In this document: positions 5,664 to 55,888 of the stretch, one piece after another | Position numbering within the stretch: position 1 is the stretch's first letter | Layout of the letters: every line of letters starts with the position of its first letter | Program-made: the position numbers and the translations under genes | The notes under the pieces: generated by a model | Databases searched by the model: none | What the model was told of the DNA's origin: nothing | Seen by the model: only the letters and a program-made list of their open reading frames with translations | Source of the DNA: an uncultured Verrucomicrobiae bacterium | GTDB taxonomy: Bacteria; Verrucomicrobiota; Verrucomicrobiia; Chthoniobacterales; UBA10450 | Assembly: GCA_963815455.1 (NCBI GenBank) | Contig: CAWFGO010000001.1 | Span: forward strand, 1,632,001 to 1,696,000 | Reading direction: 5' to 3' | Length of the DNA stretch: 64,000 bases

Positions 5664-6884
5664 ATGGATCCGGAACTTCGCTCTCGCTTCAACGCTGATT
5701 TCACGCCGGAGAAGTATGCCGCGCTCGTTCGTTGCGTAAACGAAACCGAAAAATGGCCGGCAGATTTTCGCGTTTCGGAGACGCCGATTTTTTTGACGCG
5801 CGAGTTTACGGATGAATTAACCCGGGCTGCGACCAGGATTGTCGATCTTACCCGGACGCCGGAATTCGCGAAGCATTCCGAGAACGCGATTCCGAAAGGC
5901 CTGGAGGTGCCCAATGAATCGGCGCATCCAAATTTCCTGGTGGTCGATTTCGGTGTTTGCGCGGAGGGCGGCCGCCTGGTGCCGCGCTTGATCGAATTGC
6001 AGGCGTTTCCCAGTCTATTCGGTTTTCAATTGCTCGTCCTGCATTGCCTGCGCCAGGCGTATCCGGTTATCCCGCGGAATTGGACGTCATCCTTCGGCGG
6101 GATGAAGGACGATGCCTACCTGGAATTGCTGCGGCGCACAATTTTGGGCGATGTCGATCCTGAGAATGTGATCCTGCTCGAGATCGAGCCGGAGAAACAG
6201 AAGACGAGAGTCGATTTCGCAGCTACTGAGAGATTGCTCGGCATCCGCCCGATTTGCCTCACGAAGATTAGGAAGCGCGGCCGCCAATTATTTTACGATC
6301 GCGATGGACGCGATGTGCGGATCGAACGGATTTACAATCGAGTTATTTTTGACGAGTTAATGCGCCGCCCCGATCTTGAGTTCCCCTTTCGACTTCAAGA
6401 CGATCTCGATGTCACCTGGGCCGGCCATCCCAACTGGTATTTCCGAATCAGCAAACATTCGCTGCCGTTTCTGAAGACCGAGCATACATCGCCGGCGTTT
6501 TTTGCGGATGAATTTCCCGCCTTCGCCAAGGCTACGGCGGGCAGGCCCGCCGCCGATAACATCGACAATTACGTTTTGAAGCCGCTCTACTCATTCGCCG
6601 GTCTGGGCGTGGACATGGACCCCACGCAGGAAAAAATCGCTGCGCTGGAGAATGCCCACGAATGGATTCTGCAACGCAAAGTTCATTACGAGCCATTCGT
6701 TTTAACGGTGGACGGCTTGAAGTCGAAAGCTGAGATCCGAATGATGTTTCTCTGGCCGGAAGAAGATCGACATCCGACGCTGGTCAACAATTTGGTCCGG
6801 ATGAGCCAGGGCAAAATGATGGGCGTCGATTTCAACAAGGACAAGACGTGGGTCGGTTCGAGCATCGCACTGCACGAAGCTTGA
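5664..6884 (+). CDS. Putative circularly permuted ATP-grasp family protein
   Basis: VDF..PRLIELQAFPS precedes YNRVIFDE, YVLKPL.SFAG.GV and WILQRKV.Y, the permuted order of ATP-grasp motifs. Confidence 0.65.
   Translation: MDPELRSRFNADFTPEKYAALVRCVNETEKWPADFRVSETPIFLTREFTDELTRAATRIVDLTRTPEFAKHSENAIPKGLEVPNESAHPNFLVVDFGVCAEGGRLVPRLIELQAFPSLFGFQLLVLHCLRQAYPVIPRNWTSSFGGMKDDAYLELLRRTILGDVDPENVILLEIEPEKQKTRVDFAATERLLGIRPICLTKIRKRGRQLFYDRDGRDVRIERIYNRVIFDELMRRPDLEFPFRLQDDLDVTWAGHPNWYFRISKHSLPFLKTEHTSPAFFADEFPAFAKATAGRPAADNIDNYVLKPLYSFAGLGVDMDPTQEKIAALENAHEWILQRKVHYEPFVLTVDGLKSKAEIRMMFLWPEEDRHPTLVNNLVRMSQGKMMGVDFNKDKTWVGSSIALHEA
6516..6546. repeat. In-frame palindromic repeat CCCGCCTTCGCCAAGGCTACGGCGGGCAGGC (encodes PAFAKATAGR)
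   Basis: Hairpin CCCGCC...GGCGGG; related copies at 38383 and 46294. Confidence 0.6.
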
Positions 6885-6952: not shown

Positions 6953-7098
6953 GTCATCCCGAACCGCGCGGGCGGTGAGGGATCTCGCAGTCGGCCAAAC
7001 TGCACGCAGGCGGTTATGACCCGTTGCCGGGTGCATCGATTCCCTAGTGCGACAATTCAAGGCGCACTCGCGGGGTCCTTCGCTTCGCTCAGGATGAC
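6953..7098. repeat. TGTCATCC-family palindromic element overlapping the kbl stop
   Basis: GTCATCCCGAACC..GAGGGATCT ... GGTCCTTCGCTTCGCTCAGGATGAC. Confidence 0.65.
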
Positions 7099-8282
7099 GA
7101 ATCGCGGAGTTCCCGGTTTACTTCGGCGAAGGCGTTGACGGCGAATTCCAAATCTTCGCGGGAATGGGCGGCAGAAACCTGGGTGCGAACTCGCGCGGTG
7201 CCATGGGGCACGACCGGATAAAAGAAACCGATGACGTAAACGCCTTTGTCCAGCATGCGGGCGGCGAACTTTTGCGATTTGGCGGCGTCGCCGATCATGA
7301 TCGGAACGATGGGATGCGTGCCGGGTTTGATCGTCAGGCCGCGTTCGGTTAGAGCGGCCCGAAAGTATTTTGTGTTTTCTTCGAGTTTGTCGCGCAGTTC
7401 GGTGGACGCGCTCAAAAGTTCGAGCGCCTTCAGAGACGCGGCCACGACCGGCGGCGCAATCGTGTTTGAAAACAAGTAGGGTCGGGATCGCTGGCGGAGA
7501 AGATCGACAATCTGTTTGCGGCCGCTGGTAAATCCGCCGCTGGCGCCGCCGAGCGCCTTTCCGAGCGTGCCGGTGATGATGTCGATCTTGCCCATGACCC
7601 CGCGATATTCGTGGGTGCCGCGTCCGGTCTTGCCGAGGAATCCGGTGGCGTGGGCGTCGTCGATCATGGTGAGCGCGTTGTATTTCTCGGCAAGATCGAC
7701 AATTTCCTTCAAGCTCGCGATGGTCCCGTCCATCGAGAAACAGCCATCGGTGGCGATTAGCCGGAACCGCGCATCTTTCGCCGCGCCCAACTGCGCTTCG
7801 AGATCGGTCATGTCGTTGTGCTTGTAACGGAAGCGTTGGGCCTTGCAGAGCCGGACACCATCGATGATCGAGGCGTGATTCAATTCATCGCTGATGATCG
7901 CGTCCTTGTCGGTGAGAAGCGTTTCGAACAAGCCGCCGTTCGCATCGAAGCATGACGGATAAAGAATCGTGTCTTCGGTGCCGAGGAATTTCGTCAGCGC
8001 TGCCTCGAGTTCCTTGTGAATGTCCTGAGTGCCGCAAATGAAACGGACGCTGGCCATGCCGAAGCCGTGGGTGTCGAGGGCTTCCTTTGCCGCGGCGATG
8101 AGCGCGGGATGATCGGCCAGGCCGAGATAATTATTCGCGCACATGTTAAGAACGCGTTTGCCGCCGGTGATCGCAATGTGCGCGTCCTGCGGACTGGTGA
8201 TGACCCGTTCGGTCTTGAAGAGGCCCTGCGATTTTATCTCTTCGATGGTCTGAGAAATCTGTTTTTCGAATTCAGCGATCAT
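7089..8282 (-). CDS. kbl: 2-amino-3-ketobutyrate CoA ligase (glycine C-acetyltransferase)
   Basis: [63 protein letters not shown]. Confidence 0.95.
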
Positions 8283-8402: not shown

Positions 8403-9122
8403 TTGCGTAACCCCCAGCGCATATTTGCTCAATTTGCCGCGATCGGTGCATTCTTGCTGAGTGCATGCGAAACGACTACACGGGCTTTGCCTCAATACGA
8501 GTCGCGTTTGCCCCAGAGCGATTTTCAAACTGTGCGGACCACGGCCTACACGCATACGGAATCGGATCATCGCCAATTCAGCAATCGCAACGCGCTTGGC
8601 GGCGAATTGCATGCCGCCGGACCGGCGATTCGGCGGGCCGAAAACATCAGTCGCGCGATTGAGGCTTCCGAGAATGATAGTTCCGCCTTGCGGCAGGCAT
8701 CGAATTCCGGCGCACCGCTACAGCCGTTCTCGATGGAACCTGTGGCAAGGCGAGTGACCGCGGCGGCAACAGCAACAAGATCGACATATGCTTTGCCGCG
8801 ATCGGGTGTTTACGGGAGCGCGGCGGCCGATTGGTCGCGCTGGCCCGCCGGCACGATCTTCCGTTTGCTTTCCACCGGGCAAGTCTATCGCGTAGACGAT
8901 TACGGGTGGGCGCTGGCCGGGCGAAACACGATCGACCTTTACATGGCGAACCAGCGGGAAATGAACAACTGGGGCGTGCGGCAGGAATCGATTCAAGTCC
9001 TACAATGGGGCGATCCGCAGGAAAGTTTGCGGTTGCTCGGTCCGCATCAGGAACATCCACAAATCAAGCGGATGATTCTTGAGTTACAGGGGCGAGAGCG
9101 AGAAGCGGCTGAGATGCGGTAG
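8403..9122 (+). CDS. 3D-domain lipoprotein (putative peptidoglycan-remodelling)
   Basis: Lipobox LLSAC; RTTAY...AAAD...YRVDD.G....NTIDLY three-Asp pattern. Confidence 0.75.
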   Translation: MRNPQRIFAQFAAIGAFLLSACETTTRALPQYESRLPQSDFQTVRTTAYTHTESDHRQFSNRNALGGELHAAGPAIRRAENISRAIEASENDSSALRQASNSGAPLQPFSMEPVARRVTAAATATRSTYALPRSGVYGSAAADWSRWPAGTIFRLLSTGQVYRVDDYGWALAGRNTIDLYMANQREMNNWGVRQESIQVLQWGDPQESLRLLGPHQEHPQIKRMILELQGREREAAEMR

Positions 9123-9142
9123 TTGTTCCAAGCCGCTTGTAC

Positions 9143-9169
9143 AAAAGAAAGCTCGCCGTGCGGCGAGCT
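9143..9169 (-). terminator. Intrinsic terminator after the peptide genes (possibly bidirectional)
   Basis: Minus strand AGCTCGCC-GCAC-GGCGAGCT followed by TTCTTTT. Confidence 0.75.
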
Positions 9170-9237
9170 CACTTTCTTACCTGAACCGCTGTGCGGGATC
9201 GGACCGCATTACGGTTTCGGTTCTACGATTTAGCGGC

Positions 9238-9450
9238 TTACTTGTTTCCAAAACCGCCGTCGATGTTCTTACCGGCTCCGGCGACTCCCGCTCCGGCTAC
9301 GCCAGCTCCAGCGACTCCAGCTCCGGCAACTCCGGCTCCAGCGACCCCGTGTCCGGCAACTCCCGCGCCGGCTACTCCATGTCCGCCGCCTTTGGCGTCT
9401 TTGCGGGGTTTGAGGTCACGAACTTTGATGTTTTTATTTTTCTTAGCCAT
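9238..9450 (-). CDS. Double-glycine-leader precursor peptide with (GVAG[A/H])x7 core
   Basis: MAKKNKNIKVRDLKPRKDAKGG then a 48-aa Gly/Val/Ala core; AAGGA upstream of ATG; 15-bp repeat varies mainly at wobble positions; same strand as the C39 exporter. Confidence 0.8.
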   Translation of the reverse strand: MAKKNKNIKVRDLKPRKDAKGGGHGVAGAGVAGHGVAGAGVAGAGVAGAGVAGAGVAGAGKNIDGGFGNK

Positions 9451-9451
9451 T

Positions 9452-9634
9452 TTATTTTTCCTTTTTGTTGTAGGTTAGTTGTTGTGGTTCAGTTGCGCCG
9501 AACAACAACCGACGACCCCCCGAGACGTTGGCCTTTGGGATCAGGTCGTCCAAGCGGATCAATTTTTCTTTCTTTCGCCTTTGCTTTCGAATTCCTGATT
9601 CTCCAGCAGCAGCATTTATGTTGTCTTTCGGCAT
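9452..9634 (-). CDS. Second small peptide with internal double-glycine leader motif
   Basis: ...LIRLDDLIPKANVSGG|RRLLFG...; shares DL.P...[AV].GG with its neighbour; stop 1 nt before the next ATG. Confidence 0.7.
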   Translation of the reverse strand: MPKDNINAAAGESGIRKQRRKKEKLIRLDDLIPKANVSGGRRLLFGATEPQQLTYNKKEK

Positions 9635-9655
9635 ACTTTGTTAACGAATCCCATT

Positions 9656-9672
9656 ATCAGTATCCATGCCAG
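9656..9672 (-). promoter_or_regulatory. Putative sigma54 -24/-12 promoter for the peptide genes
   Basis: CTGGCATGGATACTGAT matches YTGGCACG-N4-TTGCW spacing (GG-N10-GA, non-canonical -12), about 20 nt upstream of ATG9634. Confidence 0.6.
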
Positions 9673-9796
9673 TGTGGACTCGGCGCCAAAATAGGAGAGT
9701 AATCCGGTGCGAGCATCTGCTTTGTCTTCAGTAATTTACAACTAATTACAATTTCTCGGAATGGCGCATGCGAAGACAAAAAATCGAACACAGCGT

Positions 9797-9815
9797 TGGC
9801 CTCGATCTGAGTCCA
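9797..9815. promoter_or_regulatory. Putative activator binding site (palindrome)
   Basis: TGGCCTCGATCTGAGTCCA; 15/19 identical to 16326-16344; about 130 bp upstream of the -24 element. Confidence 0.55.
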
Positions 9816-9843
9816 TCATAGTGCCATTATTAGACCAGCTCGC

Positions 9844-10842
9844 TCACTTTTGAGCCATCTTCTGAAGGTGCCGCGTAAGGGTTGCGCGAGAGATGCCAAG
9901 TAGCTTCGCCGTTCGTCGTTGATTCCGATTTGTTTGTTCGTAAACCCGGCTTACATGCCGGCGCACCGCGGCTACCAGCGAAAGATCTTGATCCGATCGA
10001 TCATGATTCTGACCCGGCTGCGAGGCCCGCTCGGATCGATCGTTGTTCGAAGAAGTGTCGGGCAGATCGGGAGGGAAAAGGACATGTTCCGGCAAGATGA
10101 CCGAGCCCTCGCAAAAAAGCGTCATGGTGCGAACCGTATGGTTGAGCTCGCGCAAATTCCCCGGCCAATGGTGGGCAGTGAGCCGCTGCATGGCCTCGGG
10201 ATGGATGGCGGTGATCTTCTTGCCTTCGTTTGCCGCCGCGGTTCTGAGTTCGGCCGCGATGAGCGCGGGCAACTCTTCGATTCGTTCGCGTAACGGAGGA
10301 ATTAACAACGTCAGGCCGTTCAGTCGATGATACAAATCTTCCCGAAATTTTCCCTGGCGCACTCGCTCTCGCAGAGAGCAATTGGTCGCGCAGATGATCC
10401 GGGCTTCGCACTTGAGCAGCCGCTCGGAACCCAGGCGCTCAAACTCGCCGTATTCCAGGGCCCGCAAGACTTTCACCTGGGCCAGGGGGCTCATCTCGGA
10501 GATTTCATCGAGGAAAAGAGTGCCGCCGTGAGCGAGTTCAAATTTTCCTTTCACCGTTTGTTGGGCACCGGTAAACGCGCCGCGTTCGTGACCGAAAAGC
10601 TGGCTATCGAGGAGGGTATCGCTCATAGCCGACGCGTTAAACGCGACGAAAGGTTTGCCGGCGCGCGCCGAGGAATTGTGAATGGCGTGGGCAAGGAGCG
10701 TTTTACCGGTACCAGTTTCTCCCAGAAGCACAACAGGCACCGCGGATCTTGCAGCAAGGGCGGCCAGGCGAAGGCAACGAGCCATCGCTTCATTCGTCGT
10801 GGTCAGGGCCTCGACCGTGAGATTGGAAAGTGCCGGTTGCAT
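9844..10842 (-). CDS. Sigma54-dependent enhancer-binding protein lacking an N-terminal sensor domain
   Basis: GETGTGKT Walker [32 protein letters not shown]-terminal Fis-type HTH; only about 40 aa precede Walker A. Confidence 0.9.
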
Positions 10843-10855
10843 CGGGTAAACGGAA

Positions 10856-12040
10856 TTACTCGCGCATATTTTCGCGCAATTGCTTGATCGGCTCGAATGC
10901 GTATTCAATCAGAGTGCGCCGGCCGACCACGATGCGCGCATCGCCTCTCATCCCGACGGACAGGGCCAGCGGCTTGCGGCGCTTGGTGGAGTTGGTCTCA
11001 TCCAGCAAAGCCAATCCCACAAAATGCGGCCCGTCGGCCGAGGAAACGGCAGAGGGACTGACCCAGGAAAGTTTTGCATCCACCGCGCCATAGCGCTGGT
11101 AAGGAAACGCTTCGAAAAACAGGCGGACGCGTTGGTCAGCTTTCAACTTCGGAATTGCGGTTTCGTTGAAGGTTAATCGGGCCCGAACGCTGGATTTTAG
11201 CCGGGCCAGCTGACACAGTTCCTGGCCGCTTTGGACGACGCTGCCGGGGCTGCGTTGCGTCAGGGAGAGAACGACGGCGTCATATGGGGCCCGGATCGAC
11301 AACAGGTTCTGGTCCGAATTCACCAGATCGCCCTTGAGTGCGGACATTCGCATTTTCAGCTTTTCGATCTCGGCAACTTCCTCGCCACGCTTACGCGAGT
11401 GTTCCACCTCCATTCGCTTCCGATCCAGCTTCACCTGTTGCAGCGTCCGCTGCGAAACGCTCAAATCTTTTTCGGATGCCGCCAGATCGAGCCGGAGCCG
11501 GATTAGCTCGACCTGCGAAATACCGCCGCTCGCAGAGAGCGTTTCCATTCGATTAACCAAATCCTTGCTGCTGGCCACGTGTTTTTCCCGAAATTTCACT
11601 TCGCTTTCGGCCTGCCCGATTTCCGCCAATTTAATTTCGAGCTCTGATTTGTAAGCGGCATCGGCCTTGGAAAGGCTCTGCTCACGTGTCCGCAAGTCCT
11701 CGGCGTAGGTTCGTGAATCGGTGCTCAGGCCGCGGATCTCATCAGAACGCAACACGAACAATTGATCGCCTTTCTTCACCTGCTGGCCTTCCGCCACTCC
11801 AATCTGAGTCACAACGGCGAGACGCGGCGATTGAATTGGGTCGGCGCCTTCTTTTGGAATCAGGATAAATGGAGCGTTGACAGTCTCGGGAAGGTGAATG
11901 GTTATTGCGGCGAACAACCCGGCGAAAAACATTGCGATCAAAAGCCAGGCAATGAGCCTCATGATCCTGGGAGGCGGATCCTGGGGCAACATTTCCGACT
12001 CGACCGCCTTGGCGCCGCGTTGAGTTGCAGTTGCGCTCAT
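10856..12040 (-). CDS. HlyD-family membrane fusion protein
   Basis: N-terminal TM helix, V.EGQ.VKKGD.L hybrid motif, coiled coil, [26 protein letters not shown]. Confidence 0.9.
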
Positions 12041-12066
12041 GTTGATTTTTCGGTGATCAAACCACG

Positions 12067-15000
12067 TCAGATTCCTAATTGTTGGCTGGAGAGATAAAAA
12101 TAGAGGCCGCGCTGGGCCATCAGTTCGTCGTGCGTTCCGACTTCGGCCACGCTGCCTTTTTCCAGGACGACTATCGCGTGTGCCTCGCGAATCGTGCTCA
12201 AGCGGTGAGCGATCACAATAGTCGTGCGTCCGGCCATCAGTTTTCCGAGATTATCCTGGATCGCGCGTTCCGATTCCGTGTCGAGCGCGCTGGTGGCTTC
12301 GTCAAAAATTAGCACCGGCGGGTTATTGTAAATCGCGCGAGCAATCGCGACGCGCTGTTTCTGTCCGCCCGACAAAGTCAGTCCCGATTCGCCGATCTTG
12401 GTTTCGTAACCGAGCGGCAATCGCATGATGAAATCGTGCGCCGCCGCTGCCTGAGCCGCGGCCAGAACCCGATCCAGGTCCGGCTCGGCATCACCGAAAG
12501 AAATGTTGCGCGCGATCGTCTCGTTAAAAATGTGGTTCTCCTGCAACACCATTCCAATTTGGTGGCGGACGTCCCGATAATTAAGCGTCTTAAGATCGAC
12601 ATTATCGAACAGGATTGTTCCCTCGGTTGGTTCGAGCAGGCCGGCGATCAATTTGATGAGCGTCGTTTTTCCGCAACCGCTGCGGCCCACCAAGGCAATC
12701 ATTCGTCCCGGCGCAATATCCAGCGTGATGCCTTTCAAAATATCCGGCGATTCCGGCCCGCCGTATTTGAAGCCGACATTGCGTAACTCGATGCGGCCCT
12801 CCAGGCTGTGGACCGGTGTGAGCCGGGAGCGATCTCTTCCCTGCTCGGGTTCCTGTTCGAAAATGTCGTTCAACCGGTTCAGTAGAACGGAAGCGAATTG
12901 CAGGTTGTCCCAGACGCCGAGTGTTCGCATGATTCCTCCGTAGGCCATCGCGGTCAACGAACTAAAAGCAACGAAACCGCCGATGCTCAGGTTTCCCTGT
13001 ATGACCTGGTTTGCTCCGACCCAGAGAAAGATGGCGGTCGAAAGCATACCGATTGTTTGCAGGACACTGTCGTATGACATCACGATGAAGCTGCTCCGAA
13101 AGATTTTCTTCGACACGGCCAGGAATTCGTTGAGCATGGTGTCCCGAAAAACGGACTCGGCGGCGGCCGCCTTCACCGCCTCGATGCCTTTGATCGCATC
13201 GATCTGATGCGAGCTATACTTGCCCTGCGCTTCCTCGACCTCGGCAAACAATGGCCGCAGGACCTTCTTCGAAAAATACATCAGCCCGGCGTAAATCGGC
13301 GTGGTGACAAGAAAAGCCAGCATCAGGGACGGGCTGTAAACAAACATGAGCACGAGCGCGCCGGTGAGCTGCACAAGCGCCAGCAGCGCGCCGATTCCGT
13401 TGCCTACGGCGAATTGCCGGACCTGACGCGCGCCGTCCAACCGCCGCTGAATGTCGCCGGTGCGACGGCTGGTAAAGTAGGTCATCGGCAGAGACAAAAG
13501 CTGGCGGCTCAGGAAATCGAGGATCGCCGTGTCGAGGCGAACGGCCGCGAACGCGAGCAGGTATTCCTGGGCCAGGGCGGAGGCTTGAACAAAAAAGAGC
13601 GCCGCGCCCATGCCCAGCAGGATCGTTTTGAGAAGACCGATGTCCTTCTCGACGATCACCTTGTCCACCACCATTTCGGTAAAGATCGGGAAGAGCAATT
13701 GCAGGAAGCTCACCGCGACTGCCAGCAGGAGCACCTGCAAGAGAATGCGGCGGAACTTCGCGAAAAAGGGCATCAGCCACGCCAGAGTTGCCTTCGACTC
13801 GGGCGCTTTCTCGAACGCAATCGTGTAATCAAACAGCGCGGCATAACCCGACCAGCCTTGTTCGAAGTCTTTTCGCGGAATCCGTCTCAGCCCGAGGCCC
13901 GGATCCGCTACCCGGACGAATTTCTCATCGACATCGTAGAGGACCATCCAATGATTGCCCTCCCAATGAACGATGGCGGGCAACGGCATCTGCGGGAGAT
14001 TGCGCAACGAAACTTTTAACGCGCGGGCGGCCAGACCCAGCTCCGTCGCCGCCCGGCAAAGCGCCTTCAGGCTCGTGCCATCCGTGGCGGTGTGACAAAG
14101 CTGCCGGATGTACGCGAGGCTTACTTTGCGTCCGAAATGACGGCAGATCATGCCCAGACTCGCCGCGCCGCAATCCATCTCGTCGATTTGCTCGATATGC
14201 TCGAACTTGCGGATCGGTTTCTTCCGTTTGCGGAAAAGCCCTGTCTCGTCCGCGAATGGTTCCTCGCCATCTTTGCCGGGCGGGAGCGCGGCTTCTCCGT
14301 CCAGGGCCACCTTGTTCACGGTGGCGGTTTCGGCCGGCAAGTTTTCGACCGTAAAATCCAGCGGAATCCGCGCCTCGGTTTTTGCCTGATATTGCGCGAG
14401 GCGCTCTTCGAGCAGTTTTTGGAACTCCGGGAAGCGGTTTTTCAAATCGTGGACAGCGCTTGGCTCGAGCGCCAGCAAGCGACAATCGGTGAAAGCTTCC
14501 ACCGAGGCCGCCCGAGGCGACCCATTTAAGATCGACAATTCGCCAAAAAAATCGCCGTCCCGGTAGAACGCGAGATTGCGTTCGCGGCCGTTGTTCGCGA
14601 GAAAGGCCCGAGCCCGGCCTTTTTCGAGGATGAACATCGGCCCGGCGGGATCGCCCGCGCGAATGATGAGACCGCCTTTTTGGCAATCCATTGGGGTGAG
14701 ATTCTCGATCATTCCGCGCAAGGCCGCGGCGGGGAGCCGGCCGAAATTGCTGAACTCGTAAAGGAAACCCTGGAGCGCGCGCTGCCGTCCCATGATCTCG
14801 ATGTGGTGTTTTAGCTCAGGAACTTCCGCCACCAGTTGCAGAAAATCGTCGCGATCGAGTCTGATGACGTCGACTGCGGTACTGCAACGGACGCTGGCCG
14901 ATCGCGTGCCGCCCTCGGCCAGGGCTGCTTCGCCAAAAGTGTCGCCCGGCTTGAGCGTGCCCAACGGCAATTCTTGTCCATCCTGGGCCGTCTTGATTGC

Positions 15001-15180
15001 CCGTGCTCGACCGGATGTCAGCACGTAAAACGAGTCGGCCGGGTCGCCTTCTTTGACGATGATCTCGCCGAATTCGTAATGCTCTTCCTGCATCAACGGC
15101 ACGATTTTTTCGAAAATCTCGTCCGGTAGCAGCTTGAACAGCGAGGTTCGTCTTAGCAGAGCATCGTCGTAAGTTTTCAT
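12067..15180 (-). CDS. Peptidase-containing ABC transporter (2x cNMP-binding, C39, TMD, NBD)
   Basis: Two cNMP domains (FGE...R.ASV); QIDEMDCGAA Cys plus NHW and DPG residues; GRSGCGKT, LSGGQKQR, DEATS; ATGA overlap with upstream gene. Confidence 0.92.
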   Translation of the reverse strand: MKTYDDALLRRTSLFKLLPDEIFEKIVPLMQEEHYEFGEIIVKEGDPADSFYVLTSGRARAIKTAQDGQELPLGTLKPGDTFGEAALAEGGTRSASVRCSTAVDVIRLDRDDFLQLVAEVPELKHHIEIMGRQRALQGFLYEFSNFGRLPAAALRGMIENLTPMDCQKGGLIIRAGDPAGPMFILEKGRARAFLANNGRERNLAFYRDGDFFGELSILNGSPRAASVEAFTDCRLLALEPSAVHDLKNRFPEFQKLLEERLAQYQAKTEARIPLDFTVENLPAETATVNKVALDGEAALPPGKDGEEPFADETGLFRKRKKPIRKFEHIEQIDEMDCGAASLGMICRHFGRKVSLAYIRQLCHTATDGTSLKALCRAATELGLAARALKVSLRNLPQMPLPAIVHWEGNHWMVLYDVDEKFVRVADPGLGLRRIPRKDFEQGWSGYAALFDYTIAFEKAPESKATLAWLMPFFAKFRRILLQVLLLAVAVSFLQLLFPIFTEMVVDKVIVEKDIGLLKTILLGMGAALFFVQASALAQEYLLAFAAVRLDTAILDFLSRQLLSLPMTYFTSRRTGDIQRRLDGARQVRQFAVGNGIGALLALVQLTGALVLMFVYSPSLMLAFLVTTPIYAGLMYFSKKVLRPLFAEVEEAQGKYSSHQIDAIKGIEAVKAAAAESVFRDTMLNEFLAVSKKIFRSSFIVMSYDSVLQTIGMLSTAIFLWVGANQVIQGNLSIGGFVAFSSLTAMAYGGIMRTLGVWDNLQFASVLLNRLNDIFEQEPEQGRDRSRLTPVHSLEGRIELRNVGFKYGGPESPDILKGITLDIAPGRMIALVGRSGCGKTTLIKLIAGLLEPTEGTILFDNVDLKTLNYRDVRHQIGMVLQENHIFNETIARNISFGDAEPDLDRVLAAAQAAAAHDFIMRLPLGYETKIGESGLTLSGGQKQRVAIARAIYNNPPVLIFDEATSALDTESERAIQDNLGKLMAGRTTIVIAHRLSTIREAHAIVVLEKGSVAEVGTHDELMAQRGLYFYLSSQQLGI

Positions 15181-16268
15181 TGCGCGTAATTGAGCGGGCC
15201 CCGCCATTGGATGCGGTCGGCCACGAGCTGGCAGAAATGCCGATCAAGGATGGATTGGTCGATCCGGGCCTGAAGGGCCGGGTCATCCGCGTCGGGCGCG
15301 ATCTTTTTCATGATCCGGCACAACTGAAAACCGTCGCCGCGGGTCAGGGGCTCCAGGACTTTTCCGGGCGACACACTGAGAAACTTTTGCTGAAGTTCGT
15401 TGTCGATCTCCTGAAGCAGTAGCTCGACCCGGGTAAATGGATAACGCCCCTCCTTTGCCACTTCTTCCATCGACATTTCATCCTCGGTAACGCAGAGCGA
15501 TGCTTCCCGGGCCGCATCCATCGATTCCACTTCCACCATTTCCACTTCAAATCGCGTTAGCGGCAAACGCAATGCCGCCAGTTCGCTTTGACGCGACTTC
15601 GGATTTAGAAGCTGATCTCTTTTCGCATGCAAGATCGCCTCCATTCGCAGCATTTCATCGAGCCACTCCCGGTTCCGGCCAATGCCGGAAAGCCAGGCCA
15701 CCAATCCGGCCTGATCGATCCCGGTGCGTTCCAAAAAAGATTTCTCCTGCAACGCGATCGAAGCCGGATCGATCTCTTCGGCTTTCGATTCAAAAGCTGC
15801 GGCGACGCGCCAGCTGAGTTCCCTGGCCATCTTGTCGAACTCCCCGGAGAGAATGAGATCGATCTTCAGCAGATCGCGCAAATCCTCCGGTGCCGCAACG
15901 TAATCGATCGCCTTCGGCGCGACTTCGTCGTTCCAATGTTCGCCCCAATAGCGGCGCGCAAAATATTCTCCGAAATCGTCCAGGGTCAGGTCGCGCGCTT
16001 CGAGCCAATGCTCCGTCTCTTCCGCCGTGATCAGGTCATGGTCATAGCGAAATTCTTCCGCCGCCTGGTCCAGCGCGCCCTCCTCGATCTCGAGTTCATC
16101 GGCCTGGTTTTCACACTCGATGCTTCGCAGAAGTTCGTTCCAAATCGGCGCCAGATCGCCACGGAACAAGGCCGCATCGATCACATCCTTTTCCATGTAG
16201 GAAACGCCCTCACACGCGAAAATGGCGACCGGTTCTTTTAGAGTGGGCTGACTATCTTGGTTGGACAC
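15177..16268 (-). CDS. Acidic PpiC/SurA-like chaperone or maturation protein
   Basis: Repeated helical 'FR..HDL.TAEET..WL..R.LT' segments and a C-terminal parvulin-like G.V..P...G.GF..R motif; translationally coupled to the transporter. Confidence 0.6.
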   Translation of the reverse strand: MSNQDSQPTLKEPVAIFACEGVSYMEKDVIDAALFRGDLAPIWNELLRSIECENQADELEIEEGALDQAAEEFRYDHDLITAEETEHWLEARDLTLDDFGEYFARRYWGEHWNDEVAPKAIDYVAAPEDLRDLLKIDLILSGEFDKMARELSWRVAAAFESKAEEIDPASIALQEKSFLERTGIDQAGLVAWLSGIGRNREWLDEMLRMEAILHAKRDQLLNPKSRQSELAALRLPLTRFEVEMVEVESMDAAREASLCVTEDEMSMEEVAKEGRYPFTRVELLLQEIDNELQQKFLSVSPGKVLEPLTRGDGFQLCRIMKKIAPDADDPALQARIDQSILDRHFCQLVADRIQWRGPLNYAQ

Positions 16269-16325
16269 CAGCCCTGTCTCCTAACCGAAAGGGGCATACG
16301 AAGTCTAGCCTAAAAATGCGCCTTT

Positions 16326-16344
16326 TGGCCTTGTTTTGAGGCCA
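16326..16344. promoter_or_regulatory. Palindromic operator-like site upstream of the exporter operon
   Basis: TGGCCT-TGTTTTG-AGGCCA with perfect 6-bp arms; matches 9797-9815. Confidence 0.55.
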
Positions 16345-16375: not shown

Positions 16376-17413
16376 TCAGGACGATATCCTGCCCCAATCG
16401 AGCACGATCTTGCCGGAGTTGCCGGATTTCATTAACTCGATGGCTTCCTTGAATTCCGTGAAGGGAAACCGGTGGGTGATGACGGGTGAGATGTCGAGGC
16501 CGCTTTGAATGAGGGCGGTCATTTTGTACCAGGTCTCATACATTTCGCGGCCGTAGATTCCTTTGATCGTCAGCTGATTAAAAACGACGAGGTTCCAATC
16601 GATCGCAGCGCTTCCGGGCATGATGCCGAGCAGCGCGATTTTGCCGCCGTGAAACATGTTCGGCAAAATGTCGGCGAATGCTTTCGGATTGCCGGACATT
16701 TCAAGCGCGACGTCGAACCCTTCTCTCATGTCGAGCTTGTGCATGGCATCGGTGAGCTTCTCCGTGCGCACGTCCAGGGCGATATCGACGCCCATTTTGC
16801 GGGCGAGATCGAGACGATACGGATTCACGTCGGTAATCACCACGTGACGCGCGCCGGCTTTTTTGCAGATCGGAATAGCCATGCAACCGATCGGGCCGGC
16901 GCCGGTGATGAGAACGTCTTCGCCGACAAGATCGAACGAGAGCGCGGTGTGCACGGCGTTGCCTAACGGATCGAAACAGGAGAGCACATCGAGCGAGATC
17001 GAGGGATCGGCGTGCCAGCAGTTTGATTGTGGGATGGCCACGAACTCGGCGAACGCGCCCGGCCGATTTACGCCGACGCCTTGGGTGTTTGGGCAAAGAT
17101 GACGCCGCCCGGCCAGACAATTCCGGCAATGCCCGCACGTGATATGGCCTTCGCCAACCACGAGATCACCTTTGGCGAACCCTTTCACGTGATCGCCCAC
17201 ACCATCGACAACGCCGACGAACTCGTGCCCGATCGTCATCGGCACCGGGATCGTTTTCTGCGCCCAGGCATCCCAGTTATATATATGTACGTCCGTCCCG
17301 CAGATCGATGTTTTGACCACACGGATCAGCACATCATCGCCCGTGGCCACGGGAACCGGAACGTCCTCGAGCCAAAGTCCCGGATCGGCCCTCGACTTCA
17401 CCACGGCTTTCAT
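16376..17413 (-). CDS. tdh: L-threonine 3-dehydrogenase
   Basis: [62 protein letters not shown]. Confidence 0.95.
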
Positions 17414-17438
17414 TGTTTTTTGCACGACAGGGAGATTA

Positions 17439-17506
17439 TCCACAGATTTCGCAGATTCCTCAGCAAGAATTCTTAATTATCTGCGAAAATCTGCGTAATC
17501 TGTGGA
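17439..17506. repeat. Inverted 9-mer-periodic repeat (GCAGATTTC family)
   Basis: TCCACAGATTTCGCAGATT ... ATCTGCGAAAATCTGCGTAATCTGTGGA; partial copy near 6885-6904. Confidence 0.6.
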
Positions 17507-46397: not shown

Positions 46398-46473
46398 GAC
46401 CCTATCGTCTAGAGGCCTAGGACACCGCCCTTTCACGGCGGTAACACGGGTTCGAATCCCGTTAGGGTCGCCA
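46398..46473 (+). tRNA. tRNA-Glu (TTC)
   Basis: GACCCTA/TAGGGTC acceptor stem, CCGCC-CTTTCAC-GGCGG anticodon arm, ACGGG-TTCGAAT-CCCGT T arm, CCA end. Confidence 0.97.
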
Positions 46474-55098: not shown

Positions 55099-55770
55099 AA
55101 GTGGAGAAGTTGCGCGCCGGAAAAGGCGCGAAGCATGAACAGAAGAGCGTGATTGCCGCGGCCGTGCGGCTCTCTCATTAAGAGCGATCTTAGAGATTAC
55201 GGTTCGCCGGCGTCAAGCCCACATTTGGAAGCCTAACGCGAGCAAGGTTGGACTGGGGGAACCAAGTCTATTTTCACGATCTTCAGCTTCCTCATTGCTG
55301 TTGTTGAGCCGGAATTGCGAGACGAATTCGCGCTATGCAAACCGCGGAGCCTACGGGGCTCGAACCCAGTGTCGATCACGGTGAGGTTGAGAAGTGAGGC
55401 TACCTACCCCTCCATCCACGATTACCGTAGGAAGGCAGATTTTCATCGGACGAACCGGCCCTTCGAATTTATCGCTCGCTGCCCGCCGTAAAGGTATTGC
55501 TCGCTGCGCTGCGCTCCACCTTGACTGTGCTCGCTCCGCGGATGGGAGGTCGTTATCGGTTTGCGTTGGAGATCATTTTGCTAATCTTCAGCGCTGGCAA
55601 TTCCAGTGGATGCTCGTGAAAATTCCCGTGACAAAACGTGACAAACTTCGTCCGATTTTGTGCCTGTTAGTGGCTGAATCAGTTTTCATGGGCGAGCGGT
55701 TGCGTTTGCGTAAACACCTGATGGCGCAGGTGATAAACTGATATAAGCGGTCACAGAACTTGTGAGTTCG

Positions 55771-55798
55771 ACGGGTTCGAATCCCGTTAGGGTCGCCA
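55771..55798 (+). repeat. att core copy 2 (tRNA-Glu 3' end), junction of elements 1 and 2
   Basis: ACGGGTTCGAATCCCGTTAGGGTCGCCA identical to 46446-46473. Confidence 0.95.
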
Positions 55799-55888
55799 TT
55801 TACCTTCATAGGTAAATCAGGCGATTCGCGGCCGATTTCAGATTTGGCGTGACAAACGTGACAGATCTTCAGGATAGGACGCGTGAAA

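Follow-up and report, generated by a model that had tools for sequence, protein, structure and literature searches.

We analysed a window of 64,000 nucleotides (nt) from an uncultured Verrucomicrobiae bacterium (assembly GCA_963815455.1, contig CAWFGO010000001.1, positions 1,632,001 to 1,696,000 of the forward strand), which carries a cassette of six genes for the export of small peptides with a double-glycine (GG) leader. The genes encode a SurA/PrsA-like chaperone, an ATP-binding cassette (ABC) transporter with cyclic nucleotide monophosphate (cNMP) and C39 peptidase domains, an HlyD-type adaptor, a sensor-less sigma54 activator, and two GG-leader peptides named peptide 1 and peptide 2 (the cargo). 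Sequence comparison and structure models tip the balance slightly towards an export-coupled sigma54 anti-activator switch, which would drive the secretion of unmodified, probably matrix-like repeat peptides.

In the proposed switch, a non-consensus -12 promoter element would allow a low basal transcript, so that some peptide 1 is always made. Uncut peptide 1 is predicted to bind the activator with two segments, its leader strand lying on the AAA+ lid and its Phe45-Gly46 in a pocket to which Walker A, the N-terminal segment and the residue preceding sensor II contribute. If this is the adenine pocket, peptide 1 would hold the ATPase off, in a negative loop laid out like PspA/PspF. A nucleotide on the cNMP domains (cAMP or cGMP, or guanosine tetraphosphate (ppGpp) as in HetC) would turn the transporter on, and its C39 domain would cut peptide 1 at the GG between the binding segments and remove the core, thereby freeing the activator; the locus promoter and its orphan copies would then fire. 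The acidic chaperone would hold the cargo via its basic leader; after the cut at its GG, the cargo would leave the cell by way of HlyD and a TolC whose gene lies elsewhere, and would act there without modification, most likely as material of the surface or matrix. Judging from the model, peptide 1 probably binds the activator, and the chances that this binding is inhibitory and relieved by the transporter are about even. A little short of even stands the fuller proposal that the C39 transporter is a nucleotide-gated signalling protease, whose GG cut splits an anti-activator plugging the ATP site, and removes it, so that firing of the regulon would require an exporter that is both licensed and at work; the module, which precedes adhesin-like genes in one family and hypervariable repeat peptides in Chthoniobacterales, would be older than its cargo, and the hairpins described below, as mimics of the tRNA elbow, may be processing signals.

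Peptide 1 and its predicted complex with the activator

A reading made earlier from the sequence alone (the sequence-only reading) had taken the two peptides as cargoes of one kind; peptide 1 looks instead like a regulator of the activator. It consists of a basic extension, the leader motif IxLDDLxP-x3-V-x-GG and a conserved core of 20 amino acids (aa), with D, L, P, V, G, G, F and G invariant in 48/48 sequences and the invariant Phe45-Gly46 placed five residues past the GG. Peptide 1 is the first gene of the putative sigma54 transcript, and an in-frame GTG start lies 2-9 nt past the predicted transcription start at 48/49 loci without an in-frame stop (one further locus, which has no promoter match, was excluded from this count). 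The ratio of nonsynonymous to synonymous polymorphism (pN/pS) over the 48 sequences is 0.21 in the leader, 0.33 at the core start, 0.42 in the N-terminal extension and 0.85 in the tail. The GTG start, the lack of stops and the pN/pS values of 0.21-0.42 together indicate a coding gene under purifying selection. SecM-like translation arrest was considered for peptide 1 and dropped, as the high pN/pS tail is variable in length (14-28 aa) and is lost in orphan cassettes.

The distribution of peptide 1 follows that of the chaperone. Across 61 genomes, which take in the unpublished genomes G008 and G015, it is found in 22/24 chaperone-positive and 0/37 chaperone-negative genomes, as a single match in 19 of the 22. 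It matches 1490 sequence clusters. The leader scan proposed in the sequence-only reading, run with a hidden Markov model (HMM), recovers both peptides and an orphan cargo on contig C3 at 26-34 bits, well above the next match (11.0) and the reversed decoys (at most 8.8). Two orphan cargo cassettes that were read whole carry a decayed peptide 1, which is therefore not needed in cis.

Among 401 phylum-wide genomes, peptide 1 is found in seven, including G300 (three copies), G389 and G128 of a distant family; one of the seven matches is weak and probably due to chance. G300 and G389 combine peptide 1 with the chaperone, a two-cNMP transporter beside which no HlyD was found, and an orthologue of the sensor-less activator (330-340 aa, 54-56% identity), and no cargo leader was found in them. 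G404 carries the chaperone, transporter and activator in a row. In the distant family, peptide 1 precedes large proteins that begin with a pilin-like segment and contain tandem-95 repeats (the repeats lie above the cut-off in 2/4 of them), and sigma54-like sites were seen upstream in 4/5 cases, two of them weak. Such large proteins behind a peptide-1-like gene are located at L189:6273-14400, L190:9569-12158 and L191:412-3234.

The activator combines an AAA+ domain bearing GAFTGA with a helix-turn-helix (HTH) and has no N-terminal sensor domain, the build of a sensor-less enhancer-binding protein. Alignment with its homologues places the start at ATG 10842, and the open reading frame (ORF) list places it at TTG 10908. 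An rpoN gene and box are present in the genome. The promoter was found at 48/54 loci, and the same site precedes the orphan cassette on C3. The sigma54-type promoter of the sequence-only reading holds for the conserved -24 GG and departs from the consensus at -12, which is TGA and not TGC in the window; across the 48 loci this position reads TGT in 25, TGA in 14, TGG in 9 and TGC in none. The deviation is specific, since the genome has rpoN and TGC sites are over-represented in its intergenic regions (18/27 versus 28/97 for other bases). In 96% of sigma54 promoters the -12 C is kept, and it holds basal transcription down (PMC4551910). Leakage from the cassette promoter would keep the inhibitor in stock. 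No sigma70 promoter was found in 8900-10100. No upstream activator site was assigned either: the window and the C3 copy share two short blocks, and no palindrome is conserved across 49 loci.

Further sigma54-like sites were seen in the genome. One (G000:C1:1542, minus strand, TGG at -12) lies upstream of a sugar-transferase-like gene and might be another target, one that would tie the regulon to polysaccharide synthesis. Canonical sigma54 promoters precede small or secreted-looking proteins at G000 C1:1732884, C6:8205, C1:980840, C2:563541, C5:19994 and C5:30979, two pairs of which are duplicated.

The complex was modelled from activator residues 1-330 and peptide 1 residues 19-56, both given as alignments, in one prediction job without ATP. 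The scores are 0.70, 0.70 and 0.68, with 0.01 for the best control, and the score mark is reached by 116/157 solved and 2/215 mismatched pairs, a calibration that is only rough for these alignments. The runs share at least 85% of contacts, and the predicted local distance difference test (pLDDT) value of the partner is at least 63. In the model, peptide 1 residues 23-33 lie on the activator lid (190-218) and residues 40-50 run into the pocket. There, Phe45 lies beside Walker A (activator 41-48) and touches residues 13-15, 20, 24, 46, 49 and 50, and Gly46 touches residue 230. The GG cut site (39-40) falls at the junction between the two binding segments. Furthermore, the lid contact residues are more conserved than the rest of the lid (0.895 versus 0.812), and of the 22 lid contacts the distant orthologues share 9-11 and the paralogous activators 3-6, which makes these contacts specific to the subfamily.

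An equal-length alignment of activator 19-251 with LuxO 149-381 places interface residue 234 within one residue of LuxO Gln363; the rest of the adenine-pocket assignment is presumed. Gln363 of LuxO contacts the inhibitory linker as well as AzaU, an inhibitor that occupies the adenine site (PMC4878744). The solved relatives listed are full activators or their domains, and the cis linker of LuxO, the nearest like arrangement known, could have helped the complex score.

Conservation of the cassette, its export core and its cargo

The six genes lie on the minus strand in the order given by the sequence-only reading, with the promoter between the activator and the peptides and the terminator at the end, as it had described (Table 1).

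Table 1 Features of the cassette, with positions in the window.
Feature	Positions	Strand	Basis
SurA/PrsA-like protein (PpiL), 363 aa	16268-15177	-	weak TIGR04500 match and structure model
cNMP-cNMP-C39-membrane-ATPase transporter, 1046 aa	15207-12067	-	Pfam
HlyD-type periplasmic adaptor	12040-10856	-	PF13437 above cut-off; TIGR01843 at 146 bits, below cut-off
Sensor-less sigma54 activator, AAA+/HTH	10842-9844	-	PF00158 with GAFTGA, C-terminal HTH_8
Putative sigma54-type promoter	9671-9656	-	-24 GG kept, -12 is TGA
Peptide 1, GG leader, 60 aa	9634-9452	-	coding signal and conservation
Peptide 2 (cargo), GG leader, 70 aa	9450-9238	-	fixed leader and repeat core
T-loop-like hairpin, stem about 12-13 bp, 7-nt loop U-Y-C-N-A-N-Y	9183-9223	-	49/51 loci
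Intrinsic terminator	9170-9149	-	predicted; a second score, on the plus strand, goes with the convergent 3D-domain gene

Synteny was examined in the best 80 of 236 confirmed loci, which an alignment-based search of genome contigs recovered after a single-protein scan of these contigs had given no match. The named homologues belong to Chthoniobacterales/Verrucomicrobiota. Counted over loci with enough downstream sequence, the chaperone gene is followed by the transporter at 79/79, HlyD at 67/68 and the activator at 63/63 loci; where the sequence continues for 700 nt beyond the activator (54 loci), peptide 1 is present in 50, the cargo in 51 and both in 48. The cassette, including promoter and terminator, is thus kept together in relatives of the order, as the synteny check suggested earlier had asked. 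A second set of 20 loci, which may overlap the first, shows the same four genes in all 20 and peptides behind the activator in 16. When 2435 ORFs of at least 120 aa were clustered and the clusters judged by eye (smaller ORFs being left out), only the four core genes were widely shared (80, 79, 67 and 65 loci); two more large clusters are antisense frames, and the next real gene is tdh at 33 loci. In the 61 genomes, the chaperone and cargo leader occur together in 23, are both missing from 36 and disagree in two that are 84% and 68% complete (the second is G015).

The cassette is present in 22/36 searched genomes of the window's family, and 1690 representatives of the chaperone family are matched at E <=0.001, without useful names. 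A metagenome search with a single protein returned one short contig and does not establish a range beyond this phylum. Plasmid sequences gave no match to the system, viral contigs none to the exact leader pattern, and the ESM Atlas only unnamed clusters, all under 0.9. At L032 and L092, the promoter-peptide 1-cargo unit is tandemly duplicated and the transporter has several frameshifts, by assembly error or decay.

The 363-aa protein has no Pfam match. It scores 38 bits against TIGR04500 (E 9e-10), below the cut-off of 180 for that family. Its AlphaFold2 model (pLDDT 90.5) resembles PrsA/SurA best (Z 11.3, root-mean-square deviation (rmsd) 8.5 over 209 residues), with a closer fit for the parvulin domain (Z 11.2, rmsd 2.2 over 93 residues). 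At the motif positions of PrsA/parvulin, the histidine of the first strand occurs in 0/68 sequences and the second histidine in 26/68, so the conserved dual-histidine motif of an active parvulin isomerase is lacking. The protein has a net charge of -36 and no hydrophobic segment. It is predicted to be a cytoplasmic SurA/PrsA-like chaperone with a parvulin fold lacking conserved catalytic histidines, distantly related to MirC/TIGR04500. Because its gene still directly precedes the cNMP transporter in distant genomes and MirC, the closest relative that has been studied, is a chaperone-like partner (PMC13097080), we infer that it serves as the transporter's substrate chaperone.

The transporter is the sole C39 match in the genome. 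The layout named in the sequence-only reading stands, with two cNMP domains in place of one; correspondingly, the FGE...RxA motif occurs twice in 70/70 sequences, and the C39 residues Q340, C346, H419 and D435 are invariant in all 68 aligned sequences. The fusion of ABC membrane and ATPase domains to a C39 domain that keeps the catalytic Gln/Cys/His/Asp, linked to GG-leader substrates, identifies a peptidase-containing ABC transporter; the leader is atypical for substrates of this class in having a Pro eight residues before the cut. From sequence, the cassette very probably exports GG-leader peptides, and a dedicated export route without tailoring, as first suggested, is supported by synteny, co-occurrence and the lack of a co-conserved modifying enzyme. 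The route is self-contained only in part: the locus has no TolC, and TolC-type genes (12 OEP-domain matches in the genome, none in the locus) and the orphan promoter-cargo cassette on C3 lie elsewhere.

In peptide 2, a leader of 22 aa that ends in DLKPxKDAKGG precedes a 48-aa core built from GVAGA/GVAGH pentapeptide repeats; the low complexity ascribed earlier to both peptides holds for peptide 2 and not for peptide 1. The cargo leader is nearly fixed (9 invariant columns in 30 sequences) and the cores are hypervariable Gly/Ser/Thr/Asn/Gln/Arg repeats, 10-45 aa long among relatives, with 19% Gly and a period in 39/59 that is most commonly 5. A repeat-to-repeat pN/pS of 0.50 (25/80 cores) was set aside as biased, the cores having been chosen by amino-acid similarity. 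The cargo leader is found in 3/401 phylum-wide genomes, all of the window's family. Orphan cargo copies occur elsewhere in the genomes, several of them behind the same promoter. The one on C3 (G000:C3:21253-21600, L159) comprises the promoter, a 22-codon peptide 1 relic, a 45-aa cargo and a weak T-loop hairpin. A small ORF at G000:C5:~185660-185820 (plus strand) has a looser leader (IRDIDSKKNPRGG) and a 23-aa tail, shows no sigma54 site and was missed by the leader HMM. Orphan leaders at L161, L165, L166, L152 (from an unpublished genome), L169 and L174 are joined to recurring non-repeat cores (RTGEADFMG-like, PTSLQDFLKRD-like and KGES..PKHKD-like), which suggests further conserved cargo classes. 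By analogy with the EbfG precedent, and given the adhesin-like genes in the cargo's place in the distant family, the cargo could tentatively be matrix or adhesion material, at somewhat less than even chances.

The hairpin follows 53/79 cargo genes (background 81/14267 windows). In 10/12 pairs both sides change, a level reached by 18/500 shuffles, and the covariation score of 0.246 compares with 0.166 in shuffled (0/500 reaching it) and 0.08-0.14 in slid alignments; this covariation is supportive only, as the sequences were chosen by loop motif and are related. No Rfam family matched at gathering score, and the hairpin was not found in the loci searched of the distant family. A genome-wide repeat was rejected as its origin, since matches of the hairpin model lie mainly beside peptide genes: 12/14 (E <=1.2e-5, 41 genomes) adjoin leader-peptide genes, the other two lie at contig ends, and one weaker match falls inside an unrelated gene. 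By analogy with tRNA structure, the hairpin resembles an acceptor-plus-T minihelix and might be processed by RNase P or Z.

Domains place tdh on one side of the cassette and a convergent 3D-domain gene followed by kbl on the other. The kbl-like (7089-8282) and tdh-like (16376-17443) genes frame the cassette, which looks inserted in a threonine-degradation operon; tdh lies upstream of it at 33/80 loci. A 406-aa protein at 5664-6884 (plus strand), which follows an M29 peptidase, has no Pfam match and is ATP-grasp-like by eye; it is not co-conserved and was rejected as a cassette member, leaving it a neighbour. Farther along the window, a tRNA-Glu gene (~46430-46470, plus strand) has its 3' end repeated about 9 kb further on, where no tRNA is called (~55760-55800, plus strand), an arrangement as expected of the attachment sites of an integrated element.

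Points against the proposed switch and alternative readings

Several points weigh against the proposed switch, which is predicted from sequence and models. The genomes and loci compared are kin and not independent samples. The controls of the complex are unrelated proteins, not cargo leaders or paralogous activators; the conservation excess over the whole interface is small (0.908 versus 0.873); the Phe may simply fill a pocket left empty in the ATP-free model; and the model cannot give the sign of a binding effect. In the distant family, the three peptide 1 copies of G300 show that a single copy is not universal, and its promoters have a canonical -12, which makes the non-consensus -12 a family trait. 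The query used gave no peptide 1 in G404 (best E 0.88), and G128 has a peptide-1-like gene for which no orthologous activator or transporter and no promoter was found. The cargo cores, net positive in 67/79 and polar with a mean grand average of hydropathy (GRAVY) of -1.08, are atypical for amyloid hotspots.

A plain exporter, with peptide 1 as a conserved secreted signal or accessory cargo, the activator constitutive or otherwise controlled and the complex a false pass, is unlikely. Peptide 1 does share the GG leader of the cargo, and secretion of pheromones is common among C39 exporters. However, the clustered ORFs include no receptor or kinase co-conserved with the cassette, peptide 1 accompanies the activator and transporter even in lineages that have neither cargo nor an adjacent HlyD, and the complex stands far from its controls at a mark that few mismatched pairs reach.

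For the cargo alone, and compatibly with the switch, the cores might act, without modification, as Gly-rich cationic bacteriocins or in kin recognition, with diversifying selection acting on them. The multi-copy, hypervariable and mostly positive cores behind a fixed leader would suit such peptides, but no immunity-like gene is co-conserved among the clustered ORFs, bulky hydrophobic residues make up 12% of the cores, GRAVY exceeds 0 in only 4/80 and Cys is missing from 79/79, which leaves this reading improbable.

The same binding prediction would also serve a positive feedback, with peptide 1 as a co-activator or its cut leader or core as the active ligand. The lid helix has E or Q in this subfamily versus an aromatic residue (HF/YF/YY/TF) in most paralogues, and the Phe might complete the fold; moreover, a model put forward for HetC has a cut N-terminal fragment stay and meet a regulator (PMC10986499). 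We hold this reading to be quite unlikely, as the modelled Phe contacts and the Gly contact at residue 230 lie where ATP should bind, an assignment drawn partly from the LuxO alignment.

Regarding tailoring, no modifying enzyme is co-conserved with the cassette among the clustered ORFs. The graspetide synthetase model TIGR04187 found nothing in the locus or in the 90%-complete genome, and neither YcaO nor SPASM matched in the genome, with positive controls that worked for all three; LanC was likewise unmatched, with a positive control that gave no signal, and RimK-like proteins gave one marginal match. A pathway for peptides made on the ribosome and then modified after translation (RiPPs) with its enzyme elsewhere, the chaperone acting like MirC of graspetide group 21, is very unlikely: repeated cores do occur in RiPP precursors, and MirC (TIGR04500) is required together with a graspetide synthetase and adjoins a C39 transporter (PMC13097080), but these searches and the scarcity of acidic residues for graspetide links (2.7% of core residues) oppose it, within the limits set by genome completeness and the LanC control.

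Known systems and meaning of the proposed switch

The proposed anti-activator switch has several partial parallels. In PspA/PspF and HrpV/HrpS, a sensor-less activator is held by a trans inhibitor encoded by the gene that heads its own regulon, and in FlgM and ExsE an inhibitor is removed by secretion; none of these proteins is homologous to the peptide 1 system, and none is known to involve a C39 transporter, a peptide with a GG leader or a plug in the ATP site. In the sigma54 activator LuxO, a short segment sits in the ATPase site, where it is a competitor of ATP and can act in trans as well (PMC4878744); there it is a cis linker freed by phosphorylation, whereas here a separate peptide would be released by proteolysis and export.

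The three-gene export core is a variant of an already described kind, because SurA, CAP_ED-C39-ABC and HlyD define the cyanobacterial groups I, II and VI. Likened by domain layout, these groups share a long N-terminal CAP_ED/cNMP C39-ABC protein, a SurA/rotamase and HlyD, and group I also has no tailoring enzymes (Wang et al. 2011, PMC3140520). Their HetP-like motif KIxDL...GG resembles the K-V-R-D-L start of the verrucomicrobial leader (PMC3140520). Compared with the accessible description of these groups, only the cassette has two cNMP domains, a linked sensor-less sigma54 activator with its promoter, a short Pro-containing leader, a conserved regulatory-looking peptide, repeat cargo and a Verrucomicrobia host; adjacent precursors are rare in group I, at 0.35 per cluster (PMC3140520). 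The earlier view that the locus matches no classical bacteriocin or RiPP class is therefore not upheld in that wording for the export core.

PteB/EbfG1-4 of Synechococcus elongatus is alike in passing small GG-leader proteins through a C39 transporter and HlyD for a non-antibiotic matrix role, and the accessible text on it describes no sigma54 activator (PMC4997328). The GG-exported EbfG1-3 form amyloid in the biofilm matrix, according to the part of the source available (bioRxiv 2022.07.13.498973). The likeness is one of role: no instance of the EbfG amyloid motif A-F/I-N-I-G/S stands out among the listed cores, though no search aimed at the motif was made. HetC of Nostoc PCC 7120 shares the cNMP-C39-ABC layout and a regulatory role; as at the distant loci L122, L123 and L126, no membrane fusion protein lies next to it, and its cNMP domain binds ppGpp (PMC10986499). 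No substrate of HetC is known, whereas the cassette encodes a candidate substrate and target. MirC/TIGR04500 of graspetide group 21, as far as its source is accessible, is likewise a SurA-like cytoplasmic partner beside a C39 transporter (PMC13097080), from which the present case differs in scoring far below the TIGR04500 cut-off and in that no graspetide synthetase was found.

In the literature outside subscription papers, we found neither a description of the cassette nor one of a C39 exporter that cuts a peptide anti-activator. Three features for which no published precedent was found are apparently new: the candidate peptide switch, the promoter with its unusual -12 and the T-loop-like hairpin.

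If true, the switch would be an undescribed way to tie gene expression to secretion, in which a C39 exporter is the sensor arm of a transcription switch and a natural peptide inhibits the ATP site of a sigma54 activator. It needs only three small soluble parts for an in vitro test, and would offer a testable model for how cNMP exporters like HetC could steer gene expression. It would also name a major secreted product and the regulon of a barely cultured verrucomicrobial group that is abundant in soil.

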